A stretch of DNA of 64,000 nucleotides from an uncultured Gammaproteobacteria bacterium (GTDB lineage Bacteria; Patescibacteriota; Microgenomatia; JALYQM01): positions 31,515-95,514 of the forward strand of contig CAZHTP010000001.1 in NCBI GenBank assembly GCA_964535655.1. The letters run 5' to 3'. Below, one piece after another: positions 9,825 to 51,423 of the stretch. Below the pieces are notes generated by a model. That model saw only the letters and a program-made list of their open reading frames with translations, was not told where the DNA came from and made no database searches. The position numbers were made by a program, and so were the translations under genes. The first letter of the stretch is position 1. Every line of letters begins with the position of its first letter.

Positions 9825-11162
9825 ATGAAGAAGAAAGTTGAACTTACCTTTAAGGAGCTGCTTTCTAATAAGGCTTTTTTAATTTTGTGGGCTAACCAAT
9901 TCTGCCTGCAGTTGTCTTATAGCATGACGAATTTTGCTTTGATCCTGTGGGTATATGAATTATCTAAGCGCAATACCGTTGTATCTCTGTTAGTGCTTAC
10001 AATTAGTGTGCCTTCTATTTTATTTGGTACATTTGCCGGTGTGATTGCGGATCGTGTTAATCGAAAAAAAATAATTCAAATAACGGATATTTTTTTAGCT
10101 GTATTGTTTCTTTGTTTTTGGTTTGCACACAATTCACTAGGATACATCTTTTTATTGGCTTTTCTAATTAGTATGGTTAGTCAGTTCTTTCTTCCTGCTG
10201 AGGCTGCAACTATTCCCACTATTGTTCCTAAAGATTTACTTGTTAAGGCAAACTCATTATTTTCCCTTACTATTTATGCATCGCTTATAGTAGGCTATTC
10301 ACTGGCTGGCCCTGCTATTAGTTTAAGTGGAAATTATATTACGCCTTTTATGGTTGCAGGTGTCTTATCTCTCATTGCCAGTATTATTTTTACACAGTTT
10401 CCATTTGTGCATCAGAAGTACGATGAACAAAGTAGAAAACGAAAATTTGTTCAAGCTGTTAAGCTGGCATTTGATGAAGTGCGAGAAGGATTACAATATA
10501 TTTTAAAGCAGCGAACTATTCTCGTTTCGATATTACTACTAACTGCTGTCCAAGCTTTTGTAAGCACGCTTAGTGTACTCATTCCTGAATATATTAATAA
10601 CATCCTTCAAATACCAGCGACTAATGCTAGTTATATTATTATGTTGCCACTCGGGTTAGGTCTCATTACTGGGGCATTCTTTAATGGTGCTTATGCAAAA
10701 ATATTCTCAAGGCGGCGGTTGGTTGAATTATCGGTCATTGGTGTAAGTATAATGTTATTATTTTTGGCTTCTGCGCCCGTAATTTCGGATTATCTTGTAT
10801 TACATACCGTTTCGCTATCTCTGAATTTTAGACGACCGCTTGAACATATTATTGGATTATCTAGTTTATTGGCAATTTTTTCTTATTTCCTGGGATTTTT
10901 TAATGTGTCGATTGTTATTCCGGCTCAAACTGTTTTACAAGAATATACGCCGGAGGAGTTACGGGGGAGAGTTTTTGGTGTACTCAATATGTTAATGTCT
11001 TCTCTGGCTACTTTGCCGGTTGTTTTAGTTGGGTCACTCGCAGACTGGCTTGGAACAGTGACTCTTATCAGTACGATCGCTTTGTGTATAATGTTCATCG
11101 GCTTGTTTATTCAGTCCAAACGATTTGTTACCGAGCGATTGTTGTTTAAGAGAGAAGAATAA
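9825..11162 (+). CDS. MFS transporter
   Basis: About 12 predicted TM segments. The MFS-like loop 'GVIADRVNRKKII' lies between TM2 and TM3. Confidence 0.7.
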   Translation: MKKKVELTFKELLSNKAFLILWANQFCLQLSYSMTNFALILWVYELSKRNTVVSLLVLTISVPSILFGTFAGVIADRVNRKKIIQITDIFLAVLFLCFWFAHNSLGYIFLLAFLISMVSQFFLPAEAATIPTIVPKDLLVKANSLFSLTIYASLIVGYSLAGPAISLSGNYITPFMVAGVLSLIASIIFTQFPFVHQKYDEQSRKRKFVQAVKLAFDEVREGLQYILKQRTILVSILLLTAVQAFVSTLSVLIPEYINNILQIPATNASYIIMLPLGLGLITGAFFNGAYAKIFSRRRLVELSVIGVSIMLLFLASAPVISDYLVLHTVSLSLNFRRPLEHIIGLSSLLAIFSYFLGFFNVSIVIPAQTVLQEYTPEELRGRVFGVLNMLMSSLATLPVVLVGSLADWLGTVTLISTIALCIMFIGLFIQSKRFVTERLLFKREE

Positions 11163-11172
11163 TTCCACCTTC

Positions 11173-12276
11173 ATGAATATTTCACATATTCGTTTACAGA
11201 ATTTTCGAAATTTAATCGATGTATCGCTCGATGTAGATTTTCAGACCATTGGTTTACTGGGAGAGAATGCTCAAGGGAAAACGAATATTTTAGAAGGATT
11301 ATTCGTTCTTTCAAGAGGTGAAAGTTGGCGTTCGGCTTTGGATAGCGATTTAATTGGTCATGAATCTTCCTTTACTCGTGTTGATGGGAAAACTATTACT
11401 GATGGTGATGAAACCGATCTTGCGTTGGTGGTAGAGCGTAATGTTGATCGATCGGGAGTAAAAAAATCTTATCTTGTAAACGATATTCGAAGGAAGAAGG
11501 AAACATTTATCCGTTATTTCCCGGCTATATTATTTTCGCCCGAAGATATTTCACTTATTGTTGGGTCTCCTGCTGCGCGTCGTAAAGCTTTAGACGCTTG
11601 TTTATGTGAATCTTTCCCCCATTATACTCAGTTGATTTCGCAATATAGCAAGGTTATTATCTCGCGGAATCGATTGCTGGAGCGTATTCGGGAAGGGGAG
11701 GCTCATGTAAACCAGTTGGAGTATTGGACACAGTCAATGATTCAGCTTGGAGGCCAAATTTATCTCTACCGCTATAGATTTTTTAACTTTCTTGCAAGTA
11801 GACAAGAACAGTATAGAATTTTATATTTACCTAAAATTGTATGTGAAATAGATGTTTCTAATGATACCTTTCTTTCGTCAATGGCGACTCTTTATGCTGA
11901 TCGAGTTCAATCTAATATTGAAAAGGAAATTTATAGTGGAGCTTCGCAGTATGGGCCGCATAAGGATGATTATGGCTTTTTCCTTAAAGAAAAGAACCTT
12001 TCTCTCTATGGGTCACGTGGTGAACAAAGAGCGGGTCTCTTTTTCTTTAAGAAAATTCAACTTCTTTATATTGAACGATCTCGTGGGACTAAGCCAGTAT
12101 TGCTACTTGATGATATTTTTTCAGAATTTGATCGAACTCATCGCGATGAGCTTGCTCAAATGATTGCTGGATATCAAACTTTTGTAACTGGAACAGAAGA
12201 GGAGTTTTTTATTCACGAAAGTTTTGCTTTTGACATTGTGTTTGAAATTAAAGCTGGGAAAGCTTTTGTAAAATAG
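11173..12276 (+). CDS. recF: DNA replication and repair protein RecF
   Basis: 'IRLQNFRNL' N-terminus, Walker A 'GENAQGKTNILEGL', and a C-terminal Walker B/signature 'LLLDDIFSEFD' all fit RecF. The internal Met was chosen as start; the upstream ORF extension overlaps the MFS gene. Confidence 0.85.
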   Translation: MNISHIRLQNFRNLIDVSLDVDFQTIGLLGENAQGKTNILEGLFVLSRGESWRSALDSDLIGHESSFTRVDGKTITDGDETDLALVVERNVDRSGVKKSYLVNDIRRKKETFIRYFPAILFSPEDISLIVGSPAARRKALDACLCESFPHYTQLISQYSKVIISRNRLLERIREGEAHVNQLEYWTQSMIQLGGQIYLYRYRFFNFLASRQEQYRILYLPKIVCEIDVSNDTFLSSMATLYADRVQSNIEKEIYSGASQYGPHKDDYGFFLKEKNLSLYGSRGEQRAGLFFFKKIQLLYIERSRGTKPVLLLDDIFSEFDRTHRDELAQMIAGYQTFVTGTEEEFFIHESFAFDIVFEIKAGKAFVK

Positions 12277-21745: not shown

Positions 21746-23989
21746 ATGAATACAAAGAAACAATTGGTTCTCATTGATGGTAATGCACTTTTGCATCGTG
21801 CCTTCCATGCGTATCCTCTTTTGACGACTTCAAAAGGTGAACAAGTTAATGCAGTTTTTGGTTTTAGCGTAATGCTTATTCAAGTTCTTGAGCGTTTTAA
21901 ACCTGAATATATCTGCGTAACCTTTGATCAAAAAGGTCCAACATTTCGGCATCAGGAATTCACTCAATATAAGGCGCAGCGAAAACCAATGGATGATGGT
22001 TTGGCTTCACAATTTGAGCGCACATATGAAGTAGTAAGGGCTTTTAATATACCAATATTTGCTATTCCTGGGTATGAAGCTGATGATTTAATCGGAACTA
22101 TTGCAACCTGGGCAAAGTCATCTACAGACGTTGATGAGGTTATTATTGTAACCGGAGACCGCGACCTGTTGCAGTTACTTGATGATAAAGTAAAAGCGTT
22201 TATGCCTGGTAAAACGTTTAGCGAAGGAAGTATTGTTGATATTGTAGGATTTGCTGCAAAATATAACTTCAGTGAACCAAGGCAACTAATAGATTTCAAG
22301 GCCTTGCGTGGAGATGCTTCAGATAATATCCCCGGAGTTCATGGAATAGGGGAGGTTGGAGCAACTAAGTTGATTCAAAAATATGGGTCTTTGGAAAATA
22401 TTTATGCCCACATTGAAGAAATTGACTCTAAGACTAAAATTAAATTAGTGGAAAGCGCGGAGATTGCGGCACTCTCCAAAAAGCTTGCCACCATTGATAC
22501 CAATGTACCGTTACAATTTGAGTTAAAAGGATGTAAAACTGAAGACTATGATAGTCGCGCGGTACGGGTGCTTTTTGAAGAATTGCAGTTTAAATCTTTA
22601 TTGAAAAAATTTTCTGATCCTGAAACTAAAACAGAAGAGCAGCCTCCTAAAAAGATTACTAAAACAAAAGGGCAACTTTCTTTTGATGACTCTATTGAAG
22701 AAGAGATGCTTGATGAAAAAGCGCGAGTTGAGAAATTTTTAACAGGCCAGCCACAGCATGTTATTGATTTGGATTTATCCATGATTGATGTACTGACGCG
22801 AATGCGGGAGAAGGGAATTCTTGTGGATAAAGAGGTCCTGGAAAACCTTAGTACGGATTTTGCAGGTAAACTTGAAAAAATTATAGCTGAAATATATGAA
22901 GCTGCCGGCCATGAATTTAACCTAAACTCTCCCAAACAACTTGCTGAGGTGTTATTTGACCAACTAAATTTGCCGGTTGTTAAACACACTAAAACAGGAC
23001 GATCAACGGATGAAGAAGTGCTTAAGGAGTTGGCAATTGCCAGCCCTGTTGCTGAGAAAATTTTAGAATATCGCGAATTGTATAAATTAAAATCAACATA
23101 TGTCGATGCATTACCTAAATATATTAAAGAGGATGGTCGCATTCATTCAACGCTTTCACTTGATGTTGCGGCGACTGGCAGACTTTCTTCATCTGATCCT
23201 AATTTGCAAAATATACCTATTCGGAGCCAGTGGGGTTTGGCAATACGCCGCGCTTTTGTTGCAGCCAAAGGATATACGCTAATTTCGGCTGATTACTCAC
23301 AAATTGAATTACGCATTCTTGCTCATCTTTCGGGAGATGAAGCAATGCAGTCGATTTTTGCGGAAAATCGTGACATTCATGCCAGCACCGCTGCACTTAT
23401 TTTTAATGTTCCTCTTGATCAAGTTTCTAAAGATCAGCGCAGAAGTGCTAAGACTATTAATTTCGGATTGATGTACGGTATGGGTGCGCATGCTTTATCT
23501 CGAGATTTAAAAATAACTTTTAGTCAGGCCCAATTGTTTATTAAAGCTTATTTCGAAGCTTTTCCCAAAGTAAAAGAATGGGTTGATAAAGTTTTATCTG
23601 AAGGCAAAGAGAATGGGTATGTCGAGACAATCTTAGGGAGAAAACGATTCCTTCCTGAACTTAAATCTCCGGATAAACGATTACAGTCGGCTGGTCAGCG
23701 AATGGCTATTAATATGCCTGCACAAGGCACGCAAGCCGAGATGATAAAACTTGCAATGGTTGATATTGATACGGAAATACGCAATCTGCCTGCCTCGCGA
23801 AAAGATGAAATCGGAATGCTTTTACAGATTCATGACGAACTAATATTTGAAGTAAAAGAAGGTGCTGAAAAAGTCTGGATTCCAATTATTCGAGAAAAAA
23901 TGCTCACAGCATTACCGCTTTCTGTTCCAATTGAAGTAGGGGTTAATAAGGGCAGTAGTTGGGGTGAGATGAAAGAAGTTTCTGACTAG
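21746..23989 (+). CDS. polA: DNA polymerase I, short form (5' nuclease + polymerase; 3'-5' exonuclease region largely absent)
   Basis: The 5'-nuclease N-terminus ('LVLIDGNALLHRAFHA'), pol motif B 'RRSAKTINFGLMYGMGAHALS' and motif C 'LQIHDELIFEV' are present. At 747 aa it is much shorter than E. coli Pol I. Confidence 0.9.
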   Translation: MNTKKQLVLIDGNALLHRAFHAYPLLTTSKGEQVNAVFGFSVMLIQVLERFKPEYICVTFDQKGPTFRHQEFTQYKAQRKPMDDGLASQFERTYEVVRAFNIPIFAIPGYEADDLIGTIATWAKSSTDVDEVIIVTGDRDLLQLLDDKVKAFMPGKTFSEGSIVDIVGFAAKYNFSEPRQLIDFKALRGDASDNIPGVHGIGEVGATKLIQKYGSLENIYAHIEEIDSKTKIKLVESAEIAALSKKLATIDTNVPLQFELKGCKTEDYDSRAVRVLFEELQFKSLLKKFSDPETKTEEQPPKKITKTKGQLSFDDSIEEEMLDEKARVEKFLTGQPQHVIDLDLSMIDVLTRMREKGILVDKEVLENLSTDFAGKLEKIIAEIYEAAGHEFNLNSPKQLAEVLFDQLNLPVVKHTKTGRSTDEEVLKELAIASPVAEKILEYRELYKLKSTYVDALPKYIKEDGRIHSTLSLDVAATGRLSSSDPNLQNIPIRSQWGLAIRRAFVAAKGYTLISADYSQIELRILAHLSGDEAMQSIFAENRDIHASTAALIFNVPLDQVSKDQRRSAKTINFGLMYGMGAHALSRDLKITFSQAQLFIKAYFEAFPKVKEWVDKVLSEGKENGYVETILGRKRFLPELKSPDKRLQSAGQRMAINMPAQGTQAEMIKLAMVDIDTEIRNLPASRKDEIGMLLQIHDELIFEVKEGAEKVWIPIIREKMLTALPLSVPIEVGVNKGSSWGEMKEVSD

Positions 23990-23991
23990 AT

Positions 23992-25080
23992 TTACCCAAC
24001 CCAGATATTGTTTGTAAAGCACCCAATAAAGATTAACTGGACAACTAAAAAAAGCATACAAATTCCGTAGAATATAACGTTTTTCTTAACTATTAAAGGA
24101 AAAACTATAAAAACAGGGAAAGCGGATAGCACAAACCGTGTCATACTCATTATGTTCCCTGTTGCTAAAGGAATAAGTAGTACCCCAAATGTATATAGTG
24201 CATATCTTGGTCCTAGGTTTTTGTAAACCGTTATTCCCAAAAATAGAAATGAGATTGACACAATCCAATCAACCGCCAGTATGGGGGTGTTGCGGATTTG
24301 AGCGTTGTATATGAATTCATGCGGGTAGGTTATTAGTTGTTTAAAAGGTATGTTGAGTCGAGGGTATGCGTTATTGATGGTCCATTGCTGCTGTGCTTGG
24401 AAAAATATTAGTGGTGTTTTACTTGTATACGCTAAAAAGGCTGCATAGATAATAAAACCGGTCAGTGCAACTAAAAAATAAATAGTTTTAGTTTGCAACG
24501 ATTTTTTTAGGAAGCTATATTGTAAAGCGATAATACACCCTATGATGCGAGTTGCGGATGAAAATCCAGCGCAAAGGGCGGATAACAGATAGGATTTTTT
24601 CTCGTAAAGATAATATGAGAGTAGAGAGAACGTTAAAAAAAGTCCTTCACTATACAAGGAATTTAAGAAAAAAGCTGAAGGGAAGGCCATGAAAACTATA
24701 ATTGACTTTTTTGCAACCGCTTGGGTGGTAATTTTTTTTGCAAGGGCATAGAGGAGTACAACGGAAGCAAGCGAAAAGATGTTAACTAAAAAGAATCCAG
24801 CAACATCCAAAGGAATGTGCATATACGTCACTAGTTTCATAAGCAGCGATAATAACGGAAAGAATGCCTGGTTGGGGAATTCATACCCTTTCCAGGCAAT
24901 TTGGAGATAAAAGACTGAGTCCCATCGAGAAACCCAGGAAAGATAGAGTCTTTGAGAAAAGCTTTGGGTAAGCGGGGTACTATAAAAAAGTGGTTCGATG
25001 AAGGAGAGGAAAATAGTTTGGATTAATCGCCATACTATATATACAGTGAACGGAAATATCAACTTAGTACGCATGTACAC
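23992..25080 (-). CDS. GT-C fold integral membrane glycosyltransferase (PIG-V/mannosyltransferase-like)
   Basis: Multi-pass membrane protein. 'SRWDSVFYLQIAWKGYEF' resembles the conserved WDxxxFxxIAxxGY motif of PIG-V/DUF2029-type mannosyltransferases. Confidence 0.45.
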   Translation of the reverse strand: MYMRTKLIFPFTVYIVWRLIQTIFLSFIEPLFYSTPLTQSFSQRLYLSWVSRWDSVFYLQIAWKGYEFPNQAFFPLLSLLMKLVTYMHIPLDVAGFFLVNIFSLASVVLLYALAKKITTQAVAKKSIIVFMAFPSAFFLNSLYSEGLFLTFSLLSYYLYEKKSYLLSALCAGFSSATRIIGCIIALQYSFLKKSLQTKTIYFLVALTGFIIYAAFLAYTSKTPLIFFQAQQQWTINNAYPRLNIPFKQLITYPHEFIYNAQIRNTPILAVDWIVSISFLFLGITVYKNLGPRYALYTFGVLLIPLATGNIMSMTRFVLSAFPVFIVFPLIVKKNVIFYGICMLFLVVQLIFIGCFTNNIWVG

Positions 25081-25082
25081 AA

Positions 25083-26969
25083 TTATAGCGCATAGTGTCG
25101 GGAAAGTGTCTCTGCAATTGCTTCAACTTCATTTTGAGGATTAACATAATAAATGTTTGACTTATTTGCATTCTGCATCAGCCAGGTAGATATGATCATC
25201 AGATCGTCAATGTTTTCTTTAGTTATCTTTATTTCAGTCTTATCTTGGTAAACAGTATTGAGTGAATCAATCCACATCCGTTTATTTTCTTCATTTTTCT
25301 TACCTTGATAATGGATGTATTCTTTTTGATTAAGTGTCGTTTCGAGATATTCGTCATCCAAAAAATAAGGCTCGTTTTTTTGTAAATAAGAATATTTAAA
25401 GGCAGCCAAGTTGTCTTTAACAAAATTTTGTTCTTGATTTGTTTTTTTGATTGAAGTGGCGAGTAGCTTCGCATGAACTATACCGTTTTTAATACAGAAA
25501 ATCTCTTTTGACTTTTTATCCAGTCCATCCTCGATAATAATTACATTGTTTTCTTTTACAGACTTGGTAATTCTTTGTTGTTTGGCAAGGATTCGTTCGA
25601 GGGCAATAAAATTATCCCGAAGTTCAGCGGCTTTCTCAAACTCGAGTAATTCACTTGACTCATCTATTTGTGCCTGGAGTTTGTTTAAGATTATTTGCTC
25701 ATTTCCAGAAAGAAACGCTTTAGCTTTTTCTATTATTTGTGCGTATTCTTGTTGAGACATTTTGCCGCCACAAACGCCTGGACATTCGCCCATCTCGTAA
25801 TAGAGACAAAGCTTCATGTTTTCTGGTTTTTTAGGATTAATTTTCTCTTTACAAGGACGTAAATTAAATGCTTTGTGAAGGTTCGCAATTGTTTGTTGTA
25901 ATGCGCTTGAGGATTTGAATGGGCCATAGTATGTAGCACCGTCAGCCTTAAGTTCTCGTACGGCGTAAATACGAGGAAATGCTTCATTGGAGATTTTAAG
26001 GAATGGGTAGGCTTTATAATCCCGTATCATTTTATTGAAAACTGGTAAGTGCTCTTTAATTTTTTTTGACTCTAGGAGCAAGGCAGAAAGCTCAGAACCA
26101 GTGGGAATATATTCAATTTTTTCTACAGTTTGTACTAGTTTTTCTAATTTTTTAGTTTTGTGGCTGTTATAAAAATAAGATCGTACACGTTTTTGGAGAC
26201 ATTTAGATTTACCTACATATATGATTTGATTGTCATTATCTCTCATGAAATAAACACCGGGAGAAAATGGTAAGAGATCAATCTGATTTTTAATTTGTTG
26301 ATATTTTTTTGCTTCAGGAGGGGTAGTAAGTTCCTGAAGTGATCCAAAAATCTTTTTTCCACTTTCGATGAGCATATCAAACATGTTAAGTAAACTCTTT
26401 CCTGTTGCGATAGCGTCGTCGAGTGCTCGATGCCTATTTGGAATCTCGATATGAAAATGCCGTGCGAGATCATCGAGGGTGTGATGGTGTAGCTGAGGAA
26501 TAAGTTTTCTTGAAAGTTGTACCGTACAGATTTTGGGAGAGGCGAATTCGAATCCTGCTAAGCGTAAATTTTTTTGCAAAAAGTTGTAATCGAAGGCTGC
26601 ATTGTGTGCAACAAAAACAGTATCCTGAATCATTGGTAAAATTGTCGGTGCGATATCTGGCAGCAGTGGGGCGAATTCAACATCACTGTTTCGTATCCCG
26701 GTCATTTGAGAGATAAATGGAGGTATTGTCTCACCTGGATTTAAGAAGGTTTGGTATGTATCTACAATTTCACTATTGAGAATTTTTACTATGCCAATTT
26801 CAATGATTTGACTTACACCAGGCTTTGTGCCGGTCGTTTCGAGATCGACTACACTATACGAAAGATCGCGGAGTGGTGTGTTATAAAGAGTTTCTTGTGT
26901 CATTGATGAAATACGTTGGGCAGAATTCATGACGTGTCTTACTATACGAATTTTTTTATACGAAGTCAA
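25083..26969 (-). CDS. DnaQ-like 3'-5' exonuclease fused to a GIY-YIG/UvrC N-terminal-half (Cho-like) nuclease
   Basis: N-terminal exo motif I 'VVDLETTGT' and later 'HNAAFD'. The middle is GIY-YIG, 'GVYFMRDNDNQIIYVGKSKCLQKRVRSYF'. It is followed by a UvrC-like Cys cluster 'CLYYEMGECPGVCGG' and a UVR-like helix 'EFEKAAELRDNFIALERI'. There is no C-terminal RNaseH/HhH half. Confidence 0.75.
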   Translation of the reverse strand: MTSYKKIRIVRHVMNSAQRISSMTQETLYNTPLRDLSYSVVDLETTGTKPGVSQIIEIGIVKILNSEIVDTYQTFLNPGETIPPFISQMTGIRNSDVEFAPLLPDIAPTILPMIQDTVFVAHNAAFDYNFLQKNLRLAGFEFASPKICTVQLSRKLIPQLHHHTLDDLARHFHIEIPNRHRALDDAIATGKSLLNMFDMLIESGKKIFGSLQELTTPPEAKKYQQIKNQIDLLPFSPGVYFMRDNDNQIIYVGKSKCLQKRVRSYFYNSHKTKKLEKLVQTVEKIEYIPTGSELSALLLESKKIKEHLPVFNKMIRDYKAYPFLKISNEAFPRIYAVRELKADGATYYGPFKSSSALQQTIANLHKAFNLRPCKEKINPKKPENMKLCLYYEMGECPGVCGGKMSQQEYAQIIEKAKAFLSGNEQIILNKLQAQIDESSELLEFEKAAELRDNFIALERILAKQQRITKSVKENNVIIIEDGLDKKSKEIFCIKNGIVHAKLLATSIKKTNQEQNFVKDNLAAFKYSYLQKNEPYFLDDEYLETTLNQKEYIHYQGKKNEENKRMWIDSLNTVYQDKTEIKITKENIDDLMIISTWLMQNANKSNIYYVNPQNEVEAIAETLSRHYAL

Positions 26970-26980
26970 CCCGAAGATGT

Positions 26981-27781
26981 TTATTTTTCTTCATCAATTG
27001 CGTTAGAATTTTTGAAAAATTGCATTAGTGAAACGTTTGCGAATAATCCGAGCCCTGTACCAAGTAACCAACCACCAATAACGTCACTCATCCAATGTTC
27101 ACCGATATACACTTTAGTAAATCCAACAATAAAGGTAAAAGAAAGTAATACAGAGAAAATACTGATAAATGATGCAATGCGAGCAAAGTCTACTATTTCA
27201 AATGAAACGGTATTTTCGCGCGCGAGAACAAATCCAAACGGTAAATTCAATTTAAAATCTGAAATAGCTTTTTTAGTATGTCTTTTAACATAACTTACTA
27301 AATTTTCAAAGAAATAGGGTATCCAGATAAATACAAGAAATGCTGACCTGGCTGCATGTCCTGAAGGATACGATGCCTCTTGGCGAATATAATATTTTGG
27401 AAGATCAAGATGTTGAAACCGAAGGGTCATGAACTGCGGTGGTGGTGGGTGGTGCAGCATAAATTTTCCCAGTAATTCAACCCCGAGAATGAAAAGAAAT
27501 AACAGGCCAATTGTCCAAAAGTGTTTGCGTTGCATAAGCATGGATATAAAAACGGCTATTGACATTACCTGCCAACTACCTAATGTTACAAATTGAATTA
27601 AATATGGTTTAAGTCGCTCTGGCATATGGTCCTGGATGCGAACTGTTGTATCAAAATCAAAGTTGGTAGTTTTATCGTATTTTGCGGCGATTGTTAAAAA
27701 GAAAAATCCAGCCAGTAATAGCAGTGAGATGCCTAAGATGATAAAATTCAGTTGCTTATTATTTTTAAGCATACTTAACAT
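26981..27781 (-). CDS. PAP2-family membrane phosphatase (undecaprenyl-diphosphatase/PgpB-like)
   Basis: 'YPSGHAARSAF' (the PSGH motif) and 'GEHWMSDVIGGWLLG' (SRxxxxxHxxxD-like) sit in a multi-TM protein. Confidence 0.65.
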   Translation of the reverse strand: MLSMLKNNKQLNFIILGISLLLLAGFFFLTIAAKYDKTTNFDFDTTVRIQDHMPERLKPYLIQFVTLGSWQVMSIAVFISMLMQRKHFWTIGLLFLFILGVELLGKFMLHHPPPPQFMTLRFQHLDLPKYYIRQEASYPSGHAARSAFLVFIWIPYFFENLVSYVKRHTKKAISDFKLNLPFGFVLARENTVSFEIVDFARIASFISIFSVLLSFTFIVGFTKVYIGEHWMSDVIGGWLLGTGLGLFANVSLMQFFKNSNAIDEEK

Positions 27782-28881: not shown

Positions 28882-29380
28882 AGAGCCATGTTCTTTTGAT
28901 TTGTGCTCCTCGTCTGCGCCAAAATCCTGGGAAGTAAATGATATTCAATAAGATGAGCGAGATGATCATTATTGCTTCATAGGAAATACGAGCATAGTAA
29001 TCATCTTGGAGTTTTAACCAGAGCGCAAATTCATCAAATGTTAATCCTAAACCAATTCCATAAAATATTGCTAATCGGCGGTGAATAACTGGTCGTAGAT
29101 CGTATAAAGCAATAAATCCGACAATTCCTAAAATGCCGATACCCCAGTTCAAATGATGAACATGCACTCCCTTAATATATACATGTTCAATGAGGAACGT
29201 TACTTCGAGGATATCGTTACTGGTGATGTATACATAGGTTCTGGCGATAACAAATGTGATGAGAAAAGATAAAAAAACAATAAAGGGAACTTCTTCAAGT
29301 CTTGACAGAAATAGGTTTCGGAGTATCTTTTTTATTCGGTTCTCTTTGCGGTTTAACCACATCTTTTTGAGCCTACTCAT
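28847..29380 (-). CDS. small integral membrane protein, unknown function
   Basis: A 177-aa ORF with 4-5 hydrophobic helices and no motif recognised. Confidence 0.4.
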   Translation of the reverse strand: MSRLKKMWLNRKENRIKKILRNLFLSRLEEVPFIVFLSFLITFVIARTYVYITSNDILEVTFLIEHVYIKGVHVHHLNWGIGILGIVGFIALYDLRPVIHRRLAIFYGIGLGLTFDEFALWLKLQDDYYARISYEAIMIISLILLNIIYFPGFWRRRGAQIKRTWLFIFYSLKKPFQ

Positions 29381-29769
29381 AGCTTTTGTAAAAACCTTTC
29401 AAGAATCACGACAGCAGCTGCTGAATCGTCCTTGCGTCTTTTTTTCTGTACTATCCCACTGAGAATCATAGATTCCATTGCTTCGTTAGTAGAAAATGAT
29501 TCGTCTTCAAATTTGACCTGGCAATTAAATACTTCCTTAAGTTCCTTACCAAAATGTTTAATTTCTGTGTCAAGAGGAGAATTAGGTAACCCAAGTACAA
29601 TAGTATCTATTGGTTGGGAGAGTCGTTCTTTTAGCTGTTGAATGCGCGAAGGGGAGTTTACAATGGAATGCAATCCTGAAGCAGTAATTCCTTCCGAGAT
29701 CGCGAGTCCTATCTTTTTCTTTCCGTAGTCAATGCCGAGGTACATAGTAGCTTTATTTTTTATCTCCAT
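29377..29769 (-). CDS. ruvX: Holliday-junction resolvase-like pre-16S rRNA nuclease YqgF/RuvX
   Basis: 'MYLGIDYGKKKIGLAISEGITASG' N-terminus, and a later 'VLGLPNSPLDTE' with the conserved acidic residue. Confidence 0.85.
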   Translation of the reverse strand: MEIKNKATMYLGIDYGKKKIGLAISEGITASGLHSIVNSPSRIQQLKERLSQPIDTIVLGLPNSPLDTEIKHFGKELKEVFNCQVKFEDESFSTNEAMESMILSGIVQKKRRKDDSAAAVVILERFLQKL

Positions 29770-32561: not shown

Positions 32562-34061
32562 ATGAAAGTTCTTTATGTTGCAACGGAACAAACACCTTTT
32601 TCTACTGTGGGAGGACTTGGTAGGGTCGCGTATTTTCTTCCCAAAGAGTTACAAAAACTGGATATTGATGTTCGCGTGATCATGCCTAAATATGGCAAGA
32701 TTGATGAGCAAAAAGCTCATATGGAGACAGTATTGCATGGACTGCATGTTCCCACTCAAGAAGGGTTCAATGATCTTATTTGTAATGTAAAAATGAGCCA
32801 ATCTGAAAATCGAATTACGTATTTTCTTGAGAATCAGGAATATTATGAGCTTCGTGCTAATGAGTATGGGTATTTTGATGATCCAATGCGATTTACGCTG
32901 CTTTGCCGTGGAGCGTTGGAATTCCTATTACATTCGCAAAACGACTGGATTCCTGATGTTATTCACAGCAACGACTGGCAAACAGCGTTAATTTCGCAAA
33001 TGTTATCGCAGCATTATGCTCAAGAACCTCGGTTAGCTCATACCGTTACTCTATACACAATTCATAATCTTGCATACCAGGGAATGTACGACTATCGCTT
33101 TGTGTCAGATTTAGATTTTGATGACGGAAAAAGTGATATTCCAAGGTTTTACGATCCACGTTTATCGAAAATTAATATGATGCGTCGTGGCATTATGTAT
33201 TCGGATATTGTAAATACGGTTTCACCGACCTATGCTTCGGAGATTCTGACGGAAGAATATGGGGCAGGGCTAGAACGACTGTTGCAGGAGCTGAGAACTA
33301 AATTGTTTGGTATTTTAAATGGGATTGATTACGAAGAATTTAACTCGGTGACCGATAAACTGGTGGTCGAAAATTTTGACGCCTTTTCCACTGAAAAAAG
33401 AAAAATTAACAAGTGTGCGCTGCAGAAAGAATTTCAATTACCCGAGGATGAAGATATACCAATATTAAGTATTTCCAACAGACTAGATAGTCAAAAAGGT
33501 ATCGATCTTGTTACTGAAATAATTGAACCCATTCTTGAAGAATATGCGCCGGTACAATTTATCGTAAATGGTGGCGGAGATAATCGTTTTAGAGAATTTT
33601 TTGCAAAGCTTGCTAAAAAATATCCCTATCAGGTTGGGGTAAACTTGAATCCTAATTTTACTTTGCCTCGTCATATTTTTTCGGGGGCTGACGTGATTTT
33701 ATTGCCTTCGCGTTTTGAACCATGTGGAATGACACAGATGGAAGCAATGCGTTATGGTTGTATTCCGCTTGTTCGTAATACAGGAGGCCTTGCCGATACT
33801 GTTGCTGATTATGATCCGGTTACGGGTGAAGGAACTGGTTTTGTTTTTAACAACTATGAATCATTTGCGTTATTTGGATCAATTGTACGGGCACTCGAAA
33901 CGTATAAACATAAGGATGAGTGGAGCAGATTAGTACAGCGAGTAATGGCTCAGGATTTCTCTTGGACAAAATCAGCACAAGAATATAAAAAGTTATATGA
34001 ACGCGCGATTGAACTTCGTCGTCAAACTTCTCAGGCGAAAAGTCATTTTGGAATTAGATAA
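32562..34061 (+). CDS. glgA: glycogen/starch synthase (GT5, ADP-glucose type)
   Basis: 'MKVLYVATEQTPFSTVGGLGRVAYFLPKEL' is the canonical GlgA N-terminus (KVGGL-like motif). The C-terminal 'LLPSRFEPCGMTQMEAMRYG' is also present. Confidence 0.8.
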   Translation: MKVLYVATEQTPFSTVGGLGRVAYFLPKELQKLDIDVRVIMPKYGKIDEQKAHMETVLHGLHVPTQEGFNDLICNVKMSQSENRITYFLENQEYYELRANEYGYFDDPMRFTLLCRGALEFLLHSQNDWIPDVIHSNDWQTALISQMLSQHYAQEPRLAHTVTLYTIHNLAYQGMYDYRFVSDLDFDDGKSDIPRFYDPRLSKINMMRRGIMYSDIVNTVSPTYASEILTEEYGAGLERLLQELRTKLFGILNGIDYEEFNSVTDKLVVENFDAFSTEKRKINKCALQKEFQLPEDEDIPILSISNRLDSQKGIDLVTEIIEPILEEYAPVQFIVNGGGDNRFREFFAKLAKKYPYQVGVNLNPNFTLPRHIFSGADVILLPSRFEPCGMTQMEAMRYGCIPLVRNTGGLADTVADYDPVTGEGTGFVFNNYESFALFGSIVRALETYKHKDEWSRLVQRVMAQDFSWTKSAQEYKKLYERAIELRRQTSQAKSHFGIR

Positions 34062-34063
34062 TT

Positions 34064-35482
34064 ATGAAAGTACTGTTTGTAGCATCAGAGTGTACGCCCT
34101 TTGCAAAAGTAGGTGGATTGGGAGATGTAATAGGTGCTCTACCTCAAGCATTGGTAGCTGAAGGTATTGAAGCGTCAGTTATATTGCCCTTATATAAAAA
34201 CCTTTTGAATACTCAGACAGAGCTTGTTTTAATGCATGGACAACATACTTTTGAGGTATACTTTGAAGGAAAGAGTTCAGTTTGCGAATTGCATAAAACA
34301 ACATTTCATAACTCTCCCATAGTACTGTATTTAGTTAAGAACGAAGAATATTTATCTAATGGCGGTATTTATCTTTCTGATGACGCGATGGTTGTTGGGA
34401 ACGATGAGCCCCGACGATTTATGTTTTTCTGTCGAGCTGTACATCGTTTATTGCAAAGCGGTGTGCTACAAGCAGAAGTAGTACATTCTCACGACTGGCA
34501 TACTTCATTTCTTCTTAAGTTGATTCATCAGGATTTAGACTTAAAACATATCCGTACTGTTCTGTCTGTACACAACCTTGCTAATAAAGGTACAGTTTCG
34601 GATGATGTTTTGAATAAGGAAATTGATGGTACCGTAAACACGCATAGGTTGATGGCTGTAGGCGTAGATGCTGCTGATGCTATAGTCCCGGTATCGAAAA
34701 ATTATGCTAAGGAGTTACTCCGAGGCGAATTTTGCGATGGGTTGGAATATGTAGTTGAAGAGAATTGTAAAAAATTCACTGGTATAACTAATGGAATTGA
34801 TACCTTATATTTTGACCCAAGTAAAGATCCTTTCTTGGTTCATACTTACTCCGCTCGTGACTGGGAAGAAGGAAAACTGCATGCAAAAACTGAATTATTT
34901 AAAAAAGAAGGGTGGAGCGATACTGACCCTCATTCGGTTTTACTTTTTGGATTTGTCGGTCGGATTGCCTTGCAAAAGAATATTGGACTGATAGTCGATT
35001 CTCTTTCTAGTCTTTCAAATCATGCTCTTCGTTTCATATTCTTGGGAGTTGGTGAAAAAGAACTTACGCACCGTCTGCATGCGCTTGCATTGAAACACAA
35101 TAATCGTATAAAGTTTATTAATCGATTTGATGAATCCTATGCTCGACTAATTTATGCGGGGAGCGATGTATTTTTAGTGCCATCTTTGTATGAGCCATGT
35201 GGGCTTACTCAAATGATCGCAATGCGTTATGGCGCTTTACCGATAGGGAGAAGTGTTGGCGGTCTTGTTGATACTATCGATGATAGTGACGAGTCGCAAA
35301 ATGGTTTCTTATTTGAAGAGTCGACCCCTACTGAATTTCAAGATGTTTTGAACTATGTTTTTGATGAATGGCATGATAAACCAGATTACTGGCATAAATT
35401 GGTAATTAATGCCATGACGAGAGATTTTTCCTGGGGGAATGCTGCAAAGGAATATATTAAGATATATAAAAATATGAAGTGA
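34064..35482 (+). CDS. glgA: glycogen/starch synthase paralog (GT5)
   Basis: 'MKVLFVASECTPFAKVGGLGDVIGALPQAL' and 'LVPSLYEPCGLTQMIAMRYG' match GlgA. It is a second, divergent copy directly downstream of the first. Confidence 0.8.
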   Translation: MKVLFVASECTPFAKVGGLGDVIGALPQALVAEGIEASVILPLYKNLLNTQTELVLMHGQHTFEVYFEGKSSVCELHKTTFHNSPIVLYLVKNEEYLSNGGIYLSDDAMVVGNDEPRRFMFFCRAVHRLLQSGVLQAEVVHSHDWHTSFLLKLIHQDLDLKHIRTVLSVHNLANKGTVSDDVLNKEIDGTVNTHRLMAVGVDAADAIVPVSKNYAKELLRGEFCDGLEYVVEENCKKFTGITNGIDTLYFDPSKDPFLVHTYSARDWEEGKLHAKTELFKKEGWSDTDPHSVLLFGFVGRIALQKNIGLIVDSLSSLSNHALRFIFLGVGEKELTHRLHALALKHNNRIKFINRFDESYARLIYAGSDVFLVPSLYEPCGLTQMIAMRYGALPIGRSVGGLVDTIDDSDESQNGFLFEESTPTEFQDVLNYVFDEWHDKPDYWHKLVINAMTRDFSWGNAAKEYIKIYKNMK

Positions 35483-35483
35483 T

Positions 35484-37577
35484 CTATTCTACTGATTGAA
35501 CTCCGCGAACTTTTTGGAGTCGGCTATACAATAATAGCCGTTGACTATCACTTTCAAGACCTACTACAAACTGAATCTTTAAAATGCCGTCGTGAGCAGG
35601 TAACTGTTCAAGTTGTTCTATTGCAACCCTAATATCAGATACGGCTTTAGTGATATCGCGCAGAGCCCCTTCGCGATAAATCATTTCAACTTTCATTCTT
35701 TGGGCTTTGACCATGCCTTCTGGTAATGTCCAGGTGACAGGAATTTGTTTCTCTTTATGTATTATATTCGTTACGTTTGGACATACTGCGCTATGGACTG
35801 AAACTACTTGCGTTTGTGTTACAAAGCCAACTATTTCTTCGCCTGGTAGAGGATTACAACATTTAGCAAGCCGGGTTGCAACACCTTTGAGACCATGTAC
35901 TACAACCGCTGCTTTTTGTGTAACTGGTTTTTTTGTCCATCTGTTTTTAAGTGCTGTTTGAACTTTTCCGACAAGCGTCATGGGGTTGAGTAGTGATTCG
36001 CTGGGAGCTGTTTGTGGGAAATTATCTACTCGTTTAGGTCCATGATTGGGCGATTCCTCGATATCTTCTATAAGTTCTTTTTCTTGTACTTGCTCATATG
36101 AGTTGGTAGCTTTCTGAATGTGCTTTCGAGCGTTATTGGTGATTGCGAATTGTAACCAATCTGATGAGGGAGCTTTCTTTTCTTTAGCTGTTAAGATTTC
36201 AACTATTTCGCCGTTTCTTAATTGGTAATTAAGTGGAACGATATGATTATCTACTTTTGCACCGACTGTTTTATTGCCTATTTCGGAATGGATCGAATAG
36301 GCGAAATCGATCGGAGTCGCGCCTAGAGGGAGGTCTTTAACATCGCCTTTGGGGGTGTAAACGAAAATACGATCTTTAAAAAGGTCGTGCTTTAAGCCTT
36401 TAAGAAAACCCTCACTGTTGGGTGCTTCTTTCTGCCAACGTGTTAACTCTTGAATCCACTCGAGTTGTTCTTTAGAGGCTTTAAATCCTTCTTCCATTTC
36501 TTTATCGGTTACACCTTTTTTAGATTTCGATTGTTCATAAATAATATGTGAGGCGATACCATATTCTGCTTGTTCGTGCATTATTTTTGTCCGAATCTGC
36601 ACTTCCATTACTCGCCCTTTTTCCACAAATACTTTGGTGTGCAAACTCCGATACCCATTGGCTTTAGGGACTGCAATGTAATCGCTGACTCGCCCGGCAA
36701 GCGGAGTCCAGATCTGATGGACTAAGCCGAGTACAACATAGCAGTTCTCAATACTTTCGTCTTGGAGAATAATGCGTACAGCTATCAGATCGGGAATTTT
36801 GGATAAATCATAATTAAATTCCGGTCGCTGCAATTTTTTCCATAACGAGTACATGTGTTTCGCGCGGCCTTCAACATTGGCGTTAATTTTTTCTGTTGCG
36901 AGGGCATCAATTAATTTTCGCTTAACTACGGAGATATACCGATCACCTTCTTTAAAAAGAACACGGGTCTGCTCTTTTAACTGTTCATACTCTTTTGGAT
37001 ACACCCACTGGAAAGCGAGATCTTCAAGTTCGCCGCGTATTTGACCCATTCCTAAGCGAGAGGCGAGGGGGGCATAAATTTCGAGTGTTTCTTTGGATTT
37101 TCTAATTCGTTTTTCTGGTGGCATGTATTTCATGGTGCGCATGTTATGCAATCGATCGGCGAGCTTAATCATGACTACGCGAATATCTTTAGCCATGGCA
37201 AGAAACATTTTGCGCAGGTTTTCGACTAAATAATCCTGTTTATCATCGGATATAAATTTAAGTAATCCTAAATTGGTCTCGCCTTGTACGAGAGAAGCAA
37301 CGTCTGCTCCAAATGCCAATTCAATTTCCTCGATTGGGACTTGGGTATCTTCTACGACATCGTGAAGCAGTGCTGCAATGATTGAAGCATCATCAAGTCC
37401 CATTTCGGCAACGATTAACGCTACTGCAGCAGGATGAATAAAAAACGGTTCACCTGATTTTCTTTTTTGTCCCTCGTGAGATTTTGCCGCATATTCGTAT
37501 GCGCGTTTAATATTGGCTGGGTCTACTTTTTTTCTTTTTTTCTTAGCTGTTTCAATGATTTCCTGTGCAGTGATCAT
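35484..37577 (-). CDS. rel: bifunctional (p)ppGpp synthetase/hydrolase Rel (long RSH)
   Basis: HD domain 'HPAAVALIVAEMGLDDASIIAALLHDVVEDT'. Synthetase motifs 'EGRAKHMYSLWKKL', 'DLIAVRIIL', 'ANGYRSLHT' and 'EVQIRTKIMHEQAEYG'. C-terminal TGS/ACT-like regions are present. Confidence 0.9.
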   Translation of the reverse strand: MITAQEIIETAKKKRKKVDPANIKRAYEYAAKSHEGQKRKSGEPFFIHPAAVALIVAEMGLDDASIIAALLHDVVEDTQVPIEEIELAFGADVASLVQGETNLGLLKFISDDKQDYLVENLRKMFLAMAKDIRVVMIKLADRLHNMRTMKYMPPEKRIRKSKETLEIYAPLASRLGMGQIRGELEDLAFQWVYPKEYEQLKEQTRVLFKEGDRYISVVKRKLIDALATEKINANVEGRAKHMYSLWKKLQRPEFNYDLSKIPDLIAVRIILQDESIENCYVVLGLVHQIWTPLAGRVSDYIAVPKANGYRSLHTKVFVEKGRVMEVQIRTKIMHEQAEYGIASHIIYEQSKSKKGVTDKEMEEGFKASKEQLEWIQELTRWQKEAPNSEGFLKGLKHDLFKDRIFVYTPKGDVKDLPLGATPIDFAYSIHSEIGNKTVGAKVDNHIVPLNYQLRNGEIVEILTAKEKKAPSSDWLQFAITNNARKHIQKATNSYEQVQEKELIEDIEESPNHGPKRVDNFPQTAPSESLLNPMTLVGKVQTALKNRWTKKPVTQKAAVVVHGLKGVATRLAKCCNPLPGEEIVGFVTQTQVVSVHSAVCPNVTNIIHKEKQIPVTWTLPEGMVKAQRMKVEMIYREGALRDITKAVSDIRVAIEQLEQLPAHDGILKIQFVVGLESDSQRLLLYSRLQKVRGVQSVE

Positions 37578-37670: not shown

Positions 37671-39377
37671 CTAATATTTTAAATCTCTTACTTTTAACTG
37701 CACTGTTTTTTTACCGTTCCATTCGTTGATATCAATATGATACGCAAGATCGATTGGTAACCCGGGGCGAATTTGTGGTGAGTACGATCCAAAGCCAAAC
37801 GCAATTGCTTCAAGCGGTTTATTCCCTGATTCTTGTTGGGTTACTTTTAATTTTAAATGTTTATTTTCTAATCCCAATGTTCTTACTTCTATGACGTTTA
37901 CTTTTTCCGTTGAGAATAATGGTTCTTCGGCATTAATTCCAAACGGCTTTAATTCTTGGATTGCAGAATGGAGTTGCTCGGAAATGTGTTGAAGTGGTAG
38001 ATTACAATCAATATCCAAGCTTGGATCAGTCATATCTTGAGTTATTCTGTGACTGGCAAATATGCGCATGCTTTCTGTAAAGCTTTTTAACGATCCTGGC
38101 GTTACCGAAAGCCCTGCAGCCATAGGATGTCCACCATAACTTAGCAGATGTTCGCTACTTTCAGTGATAGCATCGATAATATTGAAACCTCGGACAGAGC
38201 GTGCTGATGCTTTAAACATATTGGCATGATCGGCTGTTGATCCCCATACGATCGTTGGTTTGTAGTATTCTTCAACCATTCGTGAAGCAACGAGGCCAAT
38301 TACACCCGGATTCCACTGTGGGCTTCCTAAAATTAAAATTTTATGATCTTGCTGTTCTTCGGCCTGTTTCCTTGCAGTATCAATGAGTGTTTGTGTTAAA
38401 TCCTTCCTATCGTCATTAACCATGTTAACTTTTTGAATTAATTTATCAGCTTTTTGTTGGTTATTGGTACAAAGTAGGCGCAGCGAATCCATGGCGTGTT
38501 CAAGTCTTCCCATGGCGTTAATACGGGGGCCAATAATATATCCAATCTGATAGCATTGTGTATCCTTTAGATTAAAATTAGCTGACTTGGCTAAGGCTAG
38601 TAATCCTGGGCGGGTAGTTTTTCTCAATTGCGGTAGCCCATGAATGACCATTGTTCTTGCTTCGCCTTGCAAGGGTATTAAATCACAGACAATCCCGATG
38701 GTAGCTAGCTCCAGAAGCTTGAGAGCATCCGATTTAGGATCAGCAGGATCGTAGGATTCTGTTAACAAATTCTCAATAGATTCGCCAGTTATTTCAGCAA
38801 GTAACTGTACGGAAGTTTTCCAAGCAACACCTGCTCCGGAAATGCGGGAATCGTGGATAATAAGGCAATTTTCCGGAAGTAATTCTGGTTTATGGTGATG
38901 GTCGGTTACTATTACCTCAACTCCTTTTTCTTGCGCGTAGGCTATTTGTTTGCGACAGCTGATTCCTTGGTCCACAGTAATTATGAGGTCTGGTTTTTCG
39001 TTTTCCAGTAGACTGTCTATACCAATTATGGACATGCCATATCCTTCACGTTCGCGGTGGGGAATGTATGGTTTTGCCTTGGCTCCTAGTTTATACAATG
39101 TTTCCCACATTACGGCTGTTGCAGTTACACCATCGGCGTCATAATCACCATAAACAATAATCCTTTCTTTTTTTTCAATCGCTTCTTTTATCCTTAGGAT
39201 AACTTTTCTCATATCGCCAATTTCAAAGTCGATATCGCTCAGGGAAGGGTTTAAGAATGTCTTGATAACAGAGTCATTGTTAAGCGCACGATTTTTATAA
39301 AGAACTTTGAGGATGTCTGAAATTGATGTTATTTGTAGTGGCTCTTTGTTTATTAGATTCCAAATCTTTTGTTTCAT
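37671..39377 (-). CDS. recJ: single-stranded-DNA-specific exonuclease RecJ
   Basis: DHH motifs 'ERIIVYGDYDADGVT', 'LIITVDQG' and 'VIVTDHHH', plus a DHHA1 region 'GGHPMAAGL'. Confidence 0.88.
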   Translation of the reverse strand: MKQKIWNLINKEPLQITSISDILKVLYKNRALNNDSVIKTFLNPSLSDIDFEIGDMRKVILRIKEAIEKKERIIVYGDYDADGVTATAVMWETLYKLGAKAKPYIPHREREGYGMSIIGIDSLLENEKPDLIITVDQGISCRKQIAYAQEKGVEVIVTDHHHKPELLPENCLIIHDSRISGAGVAWKTSVQLLAEITGESIENLLTESYDPADPKSDALKLLELATIGIVCDLIPLQGEARTMVIHGLPQLRKTTRPGLLALAKSANFNLKDTQCYQIGYIIGPRINAMGRLEHAMDSLRLLCTNNQQKADKLIQKVNMVNDDRKDLTQTLIDTARKQAEEQQDHKILILGSPQWNPGVIGLVASRMVEEYYKPTIVWGSTADHANMFKASARSVRGFNIIDAITESSEHLLSYGGHPMAAGLSVTPGSLKSFTESMRIFASHRITQDMTDPSLDIDCNLPLQHISEQLHSAIQELKPFGINAEEPLFSTEKVNVIEVRTLGLENKHLKLKVTQQESGNKPLEAIAFGFGSYSPQIRPGLPIDLAYHIDINEWNGKKTVQLKVRDLKY

Positions 39378-39685: not shown

Positions 39686-41125
39686 ATGGCATCGGGGATT
39701 AGTGTTCCAAACTATATCATTTACATTCTAAAAGCGCTTTCAGAGGCAGGATTTGAAGGCTATATTGTGGGAGGTCCGGTTAGGGATATCCTAGTTGGCC
39801 GCGAGCCTAATGACTGGGATGTTACCACTAATGCAACTCCTGATGAGATTCAAAAAATCTTTCCCGAAAACTTTTATGATAATACGTTTGGTACGGTTGG
39901 TGTGGTACTTCGGGTAAAAGAGAATCAAGTGCTGTCGGAAAAAGATGATAGCGTTGATCCGATGGTTGTTCATGTAACTACGTTTCGCAGTGATGGGGAG
40001 TATTCTGATTTTCGTCGACCGGATTCAGTGGAGTGGGGCAAATCTATCGAAGATGATCTGCAACGACGCGACTTTACGATTAACGCTGTGGCTTTACGAA
40101 TTGAACAGGATATTTATTCTCAACTTCCATTACTTTGGGAAGAAACGTTCTCTAAACTATTTCCTGGTGATTTTGTTCTTATTGATCCGTATGGTGGTTT
40201 AGTCGATCTACAAAAAAAATTAATTCGTGCGGTAGGGAGTCCTGTTGAACGATTCCAGGAAGATGCGTTGCGCATGCTACGGGCGGTTCGATTTTCCTGT
40301 CAGTTAGGCTTTGAAATTGAAGGGGAAACTAAAAATGCCATCAGTACAAAATGTGAGAATTTAACTCATATTTCGGGCGAACGAATTCGCGATGAATTTT
40401 TTAAGATTTTATCTTCGGATCGTCCGTATGAAGGAGTTCAATTGCTAGATCAGCTAGGATTGCTGCAGTTTATTTTTCCTGAATTAGTTGCGGGTCGGGG
40501 AATGGATCAACGAGGGCATCATATTTACGATATTTTCGAACATAGTCTACATGCTCTCAAGTTTTGCCCTTCACCAGATCCGATTGTCCGGCTCGCCGCT
40601 CTTTTACATGATATTGGAAAAGTGCCTACGCATGAGGTTCGTGATGGAATAAACACGTTTTATAACCATGATATTGTTGGTGGAAAAATGGTGCGTGAAA
40701 TTGCGTATCGCTTGCATTTATCTAAAAAAGACCGGGAAAAATTATATACGCTAGTTCGATTCCATATGTTTAGTGTGGATACTATTCAAACTGATGCTGC
40801 AATTCGTCGATTTATAGTAAAAGTTGGTGCTGAAAATATTAATGATATGGTGGATTTGCGGATCGGTGATAGGCTAGGGAGTGGGACAAAAGATCCAGAA
40901 GGATGGAGACTTAAAGAGTTTAAAAAGCGCATTGAAACCTTGTTAATGCCAACATTTACAGTGAAAGATTTAGCCATTGATGGCCGTGATGTAATGCGAA
41001 TATTAAATATTTTGCCGGGTCCAAAGGTTGGCGAAATCTTGAATGCTTTGTTTGACGAAGTACTTGATGACCCTGAGAAGAATACTACGACATACTTAGA
41101 GAAAAGAGCTCTCTCTTTTATCTGA
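39686..41125 (+). CDS. cca: CCA-adding tRNA nucleotidyltransferase (class II, with HD domain)
   Basis: 'GYIVGGPVRDILVGREPNDWDVTT' is the NTase head. 'DALRMLRAVRFSCQLGFEIE' is present. HD motif 'HSLHALK...LLHDIGK'. Confidence 0.85.
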   Translation: MASGISVPNYIIYILKALSEAGFEGYIVGGPVRDILVGREPNDWDVTTNATPDEIQKIFPENFYDNTFGTVGVVLRVKENQVLSEKDDSVDPMVVHVTTFRSDGEYSDFRRPDSVEWGKSIEDDLQRRDFTINAVALRIEQDIYSQLPLLWEETFSKLFPGDFVLIDPYGGLVDLQKKLIRAVGSPVERFQEDALRMLRAVRFSCQLGFEIEGETKNAISTKCENLTHISGERIRDEFFKILSSDRPYEGVQLLDQLGLLQFIFPELVAGRGMDQRGHHIYDIFEHSLHALKFCPSPDPIVRLAALLHDIGKVPTHEVRDGINTFYNHDIVGGKMVREIAYRLHLSKKDREKLYTLVRFHMFSVDTIQTDAAIRRFIVKVGAENINDMVDLRIGDRLGSGTKDPEGWRLKEFKKRIETLLMPTFTVKDLAIDGRDVMRILNILPGPKVGEILNALFDEVLDDPEKNTTTYLEKRALSFI

Positions 41126-51331: not shown

Positions 51332-51423
51332 ACAATAATACTATCACATTCTTTTTAAATTAGAAAGAGAAAAAGAGTCTTGTCAGGATGTCGTTTTTAT
51401 TGCATACTCAATTTTAATTAAAT

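Follow-up and report, generated by a model that had tools for sequence, protein, structure and literature searches.

Why would a bacterium carry a 3'-5' exonuclease fused to half of a DNA repair endonuclease, and does it matter that the gene lies close to one for a DNA polymerase I (Pol I) in which the 3'-5' exonuclease domain is missing? The question is raised by a stretch of 64,000 nucleotides from contig CAZHTP010000001.1 (assembly GCA_964535655.1), hereafter the window, whose reverse strand carries the fusion gene within a maximal open reading frame (ORF) at 25083..26969. We find that the protein consists of a DEDDh 3'-5' exonuclease, the N-terminal half of UvrC and a family-specific C-terminal domain of about 160 amino acids (aa). 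Its architecture places it, as a new and divergent member, in a known family that goes under the names ‘Cho-like+Exo’, PRK07883 and Rv2191-type. As to what it does, the reading we favour is that the fusion makes a UvrB-guided 3' incision and then resects the strand 3'-5' through the lesion, which we consider probable but far from assured.

A DEDDh exonuclease joined to the N-terminal half of UvrC

The first-pass annotation of this locus, made from the sequence alone, described a single protein that combines an epsilon-like exonuclease, a GIY-YIG endonuclease and the Cys cluster and UVR helix of UvrC, and this three-part architecture is borne out by Pfam, NCBIfam, PDB and hhalign comparisons. 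The N-terminal domain is a 3'-5' exonuclease of the DEDDh (DnaQ/PolC/DinG) type (26400..26852, on the reverse strand like all parts of the fusion) with a significant RNase_T match in Pfam (residues 40-190, E 7.8e-33). In a PDB sequence search it matches the exonucleases of Thermotoga maritima PolC (2p1j, 2e-28) and Staphylococcus aureus DinG (8zef, 7e-27), with the motifs aligned in both cases. It is followed by a UvrC-type GIY-YIG endonuclease (26043..26261; Pfam residues 237-309, E 5.6e-9). Residues 224-321 match the GIY-YIG domain of Bacillus caldotenax UvrC (1yd6, 4.8e-21) with the catalytic motifs in register, and the Foldseek alignment puts the identity to this UvrC N-domain at 42%. We considered a role of this domain as a homing endonuclease or in defence and rejected it, given that the domain is UvrC-type and sits in a conserved housekeeping neighbourhood. 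Next come a four-cysteine cluster in the UvrC_M region (C360, C375, C383 and C387; 25770..25853), recognised from conservation and from alignment to the Cys region of Escherichia coli UvrC, and the UVR (UvrB-binding) helix-hairpin motif LEFEKAAELRDNFIALERI (25611..25691), which was found at the cutoff of its Pfam model and which hhalign aligns with the UvrB-binding region LEFEEAARIRDQIQAVRRV of E. coli UvrC. UvrC_M (PF27096) is part of the precomputed annotation on all homologues.

The active-site residues are retained throughout the family. We aligned 63 sequences, namely the window protein, its own clade (47-93% identity) and more distant homologues (28-36%). The exonuclease motifs Exo I (D29/E31), Exo II (N110..D114) and Exo III (H167..D172) were checked in this alignment for their catalytic acidic residues, which are all present: the DEDDh set D29, E31, D114, H167 and D172 is invariant, as are N110 and F113. 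The GIY-YIG domain carries Y227, Y238, K241, R248, E287 and N299, and here Y227, Y238, G240, R248, E287 and N299 are invariant. In the Cys cluster, C360, C375 and C387 are invariant and C383 is at least 90% conserved; of the conserved UVR residues, E432 and A434 are invariant and R438 is at least 90% conserved. The invariance of the catalytic residues across 63 sequences indicates that purifying selection keeps both nuclease domains active as enzymes. The AlphaFold2 model derived from the same alignment is confident (mean predicted local distance difference test score, pLDDT, 83.8), and with the full model as query the only Foldseek matches in the PDB are exonuclease domains (DnaQ, PolC, DinG and ExoX) and the UvrC N-domain.

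The length first given to the protein, 628 aa, is only partly right. The ORF exists as described (TTG start, 628 codons), but the true start is probably the ATG at 26930 rather than the TTG at 26969, because this TTG falls in a promoter-like -35 element and because an identical database protein (P0001) is 615 aa long. The coding sequence would then run over 25083..26930, with its stop at 25083-25085, and encode 615 aa. The TTG forms the first three bases of the -35 hexamer in TTGACT-17 nt-TATAGT (26941..26969; 10/12 matches), a site that ends 10 nt before the ATG. It would imply that the fusion gene has its own promoter, a very short leader and a nearly leaderless mRNA, although the site is weak evidence, since the region has no more promoter-like sites than chance would give. 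Residue numbers of catalytic and conserved positions are counted here from the ATG (Met-14 of the TTG ORF), and the Pfam ranges of RNase_T, GIY-YIG and UVR from the TTG.

How much of UvrC is present can be read from two comparisons. The NCBIfam model TIGR00194 (uvrC) is covered at positions 3-300 of 574 only, with 246.7 bits against a cutoff of 285.45, and in hhalign the family columns 223-500 align to residues 8-282 of the 610 of E. coli UvrC (E 5.8e-51). This aligned stretch comprises the GIY-YIG domain, the Cys region, the UvrB-binding helix and the first beta-meander (about 40 residues) of the next UvrC domain. Neither the EndoV-like 5'-incision nuclease nor the HhH domain has a Pfam match in the fusion, and since the UvrC alignment stops at residue 282 we conclude that both are absent, as the first-pass annotation had held in saying that the C-terminal half of UvrC is missing. 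The fusion therefore has in common with UvrC the GIY-YIG 3'-incision domain, the Cys cluster, the UvrB-binding UVR domain and the start of the domain that follows, and differs from it by the N-terminal DEDDh exonuclease and by having no EndoV-like 5'-incision nuclease or (HhH)2.

The nuclease had also been called Cho-like. This is apt in so far as it is a UvrC-derived GIY-YIG without the C-terminal nuclease, but the resemblance to the N-terminal half of UvrC is much closer than that to E. coli Cho, for which the family profile gives E 2.7e-24 over Cho residues 22-206 of 295 and ends before the Cho C-terminal domain. With the Excinuclease Cho model NF007833, the fusion scores 79.4 bits against a cutoff of 367. 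The stronger and longer match to UvrC marks the fusion as a derivative of the UvrC N-terminal half that keeps the UvrB-binding domain, and not as an orthodox Cho. E. coli Cho (YdjQ), a back-up nuclease of nucleotide excision repair (NER) that makes the 3' incision only, is like the fusion in having a UvrC-derived GIY-YIG and Cys cluster and no 5'-incision domain; unlike the fusion, it has no exonuclease or UVR domain and ends in a C-terminal domain of its own. In the original work on Cho, UvrC is reported to cut at the 4th-5th bond, and Cho about 4 nt further 3'.

The C-terminal domain of the fusion (about 164 aa; 25086..25577) combines a beta-meander of three strands with helices and with an insert of about 45 aa that is specific to the clade, and it is conserved family-wide, including G483 and W583. 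The insert (listed at residues 498-529) has low model confidence and is missing from distant homologues. Equating it with the Cho C-terminal domain has no support and was rejected, because the hhalign similarity is not significant: the profile of this domain aligns over just 16 columns with E. coli Cho (probability 1.6%) and over just 32 columns with E. coli UvrC (probability 2.6%).

Family membership and distribution

The architecture has been in the literature since 2002-2006. Dunin-Horkawicz, Feder and Bujnicki (2006; PMC1564403) named it ‘Cho-like+Exo’ (N-terminal ExoIII; C4-UvrBb), then known from Actinobacteria, and kept it apart from the betaproteobacterial ‘Cho+Exo’ proteins, which have the Cho C-terminal domain. 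Like the fusion, ‘Cho+Exo’ has an N-terminal epsilon-like exonuclease joined to a Cho/UvrC-type GIY-YIG, but where it carries the Cho C-terminal domain the fusion has a UVR domain instead. The retained UVR domain thus sets the ‘Cho-like+Exo’ family, the fusion included, apart from both orthodox Cho and ‘Cho+Exo’. The family member in Mycobacterium tuberculosis is Rv2191, which a 2024 study presented as a potential second homologue of DnaQ that also has a UvrC-like region; Rv2191 (Mb2214c in M. bovis) is a dnaQ-uvrC paralogue, and the mycobacterial gene has been reported to be DNA-damage-inducible. The fusion shares with ‘Cho-like+Exo’/Rv2191 proteins the order ExoIII/DEDDh, GIY-YIG, C4 cluster and UvrB-binding domain, with no EndoV or HhH, as well as the catalytic residues and the C-terminal domain with its conserved Gly and Trp. 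It is just 29-37% identical to the named actinobacterial members and differs from them by the clade insert of about 45 aa and by a Patescibacteria-like rather than Actinomycetota host. The best NCBIfam match of the fusion is likewise to this family (‘DEDD exonuclease domain-containing protein’, PRK07883.1-4; E 3.9e-129).

The first-pass annotation considered such fusions rare, which does not hold: the same architecture occurs in at least 120 database clusters, is covered by five NCBIfam models and has two decades of literature. For the fusion and for PolA alike, we took the best 120 database clusters as homologues. All 120 fusion clusters have the same set of exonuclease and UvrC_M (plus GIY-YIG) domains, and the E value is still 3e-72 at rank 120. 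Beyond the fusion's own clade (at least 47% identity), identity is at most 37%, and every named match among the 120 is from Actinomycetota. The fusion of an exonuclease to the UvrC N-terminal half is thus common in Actinomycetota, and it is present elsewhere too. Two distant homologues with 33-36% identity, one on a contig of GCA_964524155.1 (L005) and one on an ENA scaffold (L006), lie near genes for Omp85 and Por_Secre_tail proteins. These contexts suggest that the hosts are diderm, possibly of the FCB group, and that the family reaches beyond Actinomycetota and is wider than the Actinobacteria reported in 2006.

Membership of this family also bears on whether the exonuclease domain could be the replicative, epsilon-like proofreader of the organism. 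In favour of this, the domain has a complete set of DEDDh residues, resembles PolC-type proofreading domains most closely and passes the subfamily-domain cutoff of TIGR00573 (‘dnaq’) with 93.6 against 71.5 bits. The DnaQ/Pol III epsilon equivalog model TIGR01406, however, is far below its cutoff (74.4 against 222.7 bits), the domain is fused to a repair nuclease, and in mycobacteria the 2024 study assigned the proofreading role that it examined to the other DnaQ homologue and to the PHP domain, not to Rv2191. We regard a role as replicative proofreader as extremely improbable.

Proposed role in excision repair

[quoted passage not shown] In the corresponding scheme for the fusion, the UVR domain would dock the protein on the UvrB-DNA pre-incision complex and the GIY-YIG domain would nick the damaged strand 3' of the lesion. 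The tethered exonuclease would then degrade the nicked strand 3'->5' through the lesion, replacing the missing 5' incision, and the remaining 3'-OH would be extended by Pol I and sealed by ligase. We favour this scheme mostly because the UVR region is so strongly conserved.

Several results weigh against it. The Pfam score of the UVR domain on the whole protein lies exactly at the 21.5-bit cutoff (residues 427-453, E 1.9e-4), rising to 22.9 bits (7.1e-5) when the C-terminal fragment is searched alone. The C-terminal domain has no match in a permissive Pfam scan and no solved structural relative, so no function is assigned to it. The window holds no uvrA or uvrB, nor a uvrC, among its ORFs of at least 330 aa and ten smaller ones that were scanned. 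The fusion also stays under all five NCBIfam PRK07883 cutoffs (the best being NF005906, with 431.5 against 495 bits), and it is therefore by architecture a divergent member of the family, not an equivalog by score. Lastly, we found no biochemical activity in the literature for any family member, and the mechanism is a 20-year-old hypothesis.

The borderline UVR score is one reason to consider that the fusion is a repair nuclease that works without UvrB. Possible substrates include interstrand cross-links, 3'-blocked ends, stalled forks and ADP-ribosylated DNA; the GIY-YIG domain would then be a structure-specific nickase, and the exonuclease would trim. The conserved C-terminal domain might offer another mode of recruitment, and E. 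coli Cho is described as acting in cross-link repair. There is also a DnaQ-like exonuclease that works in UvrABC-independent excision: MrfB of Bacillus subtilis MrfAB, which acts in mitomycin-C excision repair. Like the fusion, MrfB has a DEDDh exonuclease dedicated to removing the lesion-bearing strand; unlike the fusion, it is a separate protein with TPR repeats and a helicase partner, independent of UvrABC and without GIY-YIG or UVR domains. What makes a UvrB-independent nuclease unlikely in our view is that the UVR motif aligns residue for residue with the UvrB-binding region of E. coli UvrC, with key residues invariant, which is hard to explain if UvrB is not the partner.

The absence of uvrC from the window, in turn, could mean that canonical uvrC has been lost and that the lineage relies on the fusion alone for NER incision, with a single 3' cut followed by exonucleolytic resection. 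The protein retains an intact UvrB-binding domain and two intact nuclease active sites, and the genome is small, with a related contig of 1.57 Mb. The window, however, represents only about 4% of the roughly 1.5-Mb genome, which makes the absence of uvrC there say little, and in lineages with complete genomes (Actinomycetota and betaproteobacteria) the fusion coexists with uvrC. We consider the loss of uvrC in favour of the fusion decidedly unlikely.

PolA, the gene neighbourhood and the host

The window's polA (21746..23989, forward strand) encodes a protein of 747 aa with a 5'-3' exonuclease and a family-A polymerase. Pfam finds the 5'-3' exonuclease and DNA_pol_A domains only. The alignment with Taq pairs residues 4-294 with 11-290 and residues 346-744 with 437-832, the polymerase motifs being intact, and between these two blocks a charged linker of 51 aa (residues 295-345; 22628-22780) replaces 146 Taq residues that hold a vestigial 3'-5' exonuclease domain. 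Klenow has a full proofreading domain at the position of this linker. With 892 against 720 and 855 against 600 bits, the protein exceeds the cutoffs of the NCBIfam models for Pol I; it has an intact 5'-nuclease domain and an intact polymerase domain but no middle domain. The earlier remark that the 3'-5' exonuclease region of this polymerase is largely missing was thus correct, and indeed the whole domain is gone. The trait is not peculiar to this genome: short PolA proteins (697-805 aa, no exonuclease domain) make up 120/120 of the best PolA homologues, many of them named Daviesbacteria, Microgenomates or Patescibacteria. As judged from these homologues, loss of the PolA 3'-5' exonuclease domain is a lineage-wide trait of the Candidate Phyla Radiation (CPR). 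A literature search for exonuclease-less Pol I in Patescibacteria found nothing relevant.

The first-pass annotation went on to suggest a division of labour in a reduced genome, in which the fusion would supply in trans the 3'-5' proofreading lost by Pol I. There is some appeal in this, given that PolA has no 3'-5' exonuclease domain, that the fusion lies 0-3 genes from polA throughout the clade and that both proteins act in gap-filling repair. The arrangement of the genes argues otherwise. polA (forward) and the fusion (reverse) are convergent and hence belong to separate transcription units and form no operon. The spacing varies: the two genes are tail-to-tail and 12 bp apart in one relative (L002), separated by one gene in the window and in a second relative (L001), and by three genes (about 6 kb) in the P0009 (68% identity) and P0017 (49%) contigs. 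The single gene between them here encodes a PIG-V-like mannosyltransferase membrane protein (23992..25080, reverse strand), which is missing at this place in L002. The constant neighbour of the fusion across the clade is not polA but a PAP2 phosphatase gene (26981..27781), upstream on the same strand, and the block FtsH-RuvX-GT4-PAP2-fusion is collinear in all relatives compared. The whole block being collinear, we attribute the closeness of fusion and polA to synteny across the lineage and not to a functional pairing.

Distribution points the same way. Within 10 kb of the two distant fusion homologues there is no polA, and the fusion occurs in betaproteobacteria and in Actinomycetota, whose Pol I keeps the middle domain (for example mycobacterial Pol I, 6vde, 908 aa). 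Conversely, no Daviesbacteria, Microgenomates or Patescibacteria name, although frequent for short PolA, appears among the 120 listed fusion homologues, of which the named ones are Actinomycetota. Most lineages with a short PolA thus seem to manage without the fusion, which is suggestive rather than conclusive, since most of the 120 fusion clusters are listed without an organism name. In addition, the protein contains no module resembling a Pol I-binding one, and its exonuclease is covalently tied to an incision nuclease that docks on UvrB. Proofreading in trans is, in our judgement, very improbable.

A combination of these ideas is that the fusion replaced UvrC in this Microgenomates-like lineage, so that NER would proceed by a single UvrB-guided 3' incision, removal of the lesion by the tethered exonuclease and fill-in by the exonuclease-less Pol I, and the exonuclease might trim Pol I errors at the gap. 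We offer this as a speculation with a poor chance of being right.

The host itself was placed by PolA and by RpoA. Two relatives in the genome collection have 81% identity (L001, on the 1.57-Mb contig CAYOFQ010000001.1) and 79% (on another contig). For PolA (50-53%), the closest named relatives beyond this clade are Candidatus Daviesbacteria, the Microgenomates group and the Patescibacteria group, and for RpoA (47-50%) they are Candidatus Gottesmanbacteria, Curtissbacteria and the Patescibacteria group. On these two proteins, the host is most likely a Microgenomates-like member of the CPR, and the Gammaproteobacteria label on the L001 record is probably wrong. A fusion of this kind was not expected in such a host, and it was either gained by lateral transfer or kept in this branch alone. 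The literature search turned up no paper on NER or uvrC in the CPR. Other repair and recombination genes of the window are fpg/mutM (4039-4860, forward), a recF-like SMC_N ATPase (11125-12276, forward), recJ (37671-39377, reverse) and ruvX (29377-29769, reverse), and the host has therefore not lost its repair functions.

The window has some further features. A SAM-I/IV riboswitch (51419-51551, forward; 43.8 bits against a gathering threshold of 41.1) lies directly upstream of metK (51576-52691, forward), the S-adenosylmethionine synthetase gene. An 811-aa protein (43260-45695, forward) has HD_4 (RelA/SpoT-type hydrolase) as its sole recognisable domain and lies 6 kb from a complete RelA/SpoT homologue (35484-37577, reverse). 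There are also two tandem glycogen/starch-synthase paralogues (Glyco_transf_5 + GT1; 32562-34061 and 34064-35482, both forward), of which only one copy is seen in the P0017 contig. Large ORFs without a Pfam match at E<=1e-5 are found at 4866-7430 (reverse, 854 aa), 41118-42896 (reverse, 592 aa), 57085-58698 (forward, 537 aa) and 48247-49374 (reverse, 375 aa). Since the GC skew is positive in 31 of 32 consecutive 2-kb windows despite genes on both strands, the 64 kb probably lie within one replichore.

For the family, the finding adds only a new host lineage to a known architecture. That Pol I has entirely lost its 3'-5' exonuclease domain across Microgenomates-type bacteria may merit a description of its own. 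The Rv2191-type family is widespread, damage-inducible in mycobacteria and biochemically uncharacterised. The long-standing ‘cut then resect’ hypothesis of excision repair could conveniently be tested on a member such as this one, which is small, divergent and from a reduced Patescibacteria-like genome.

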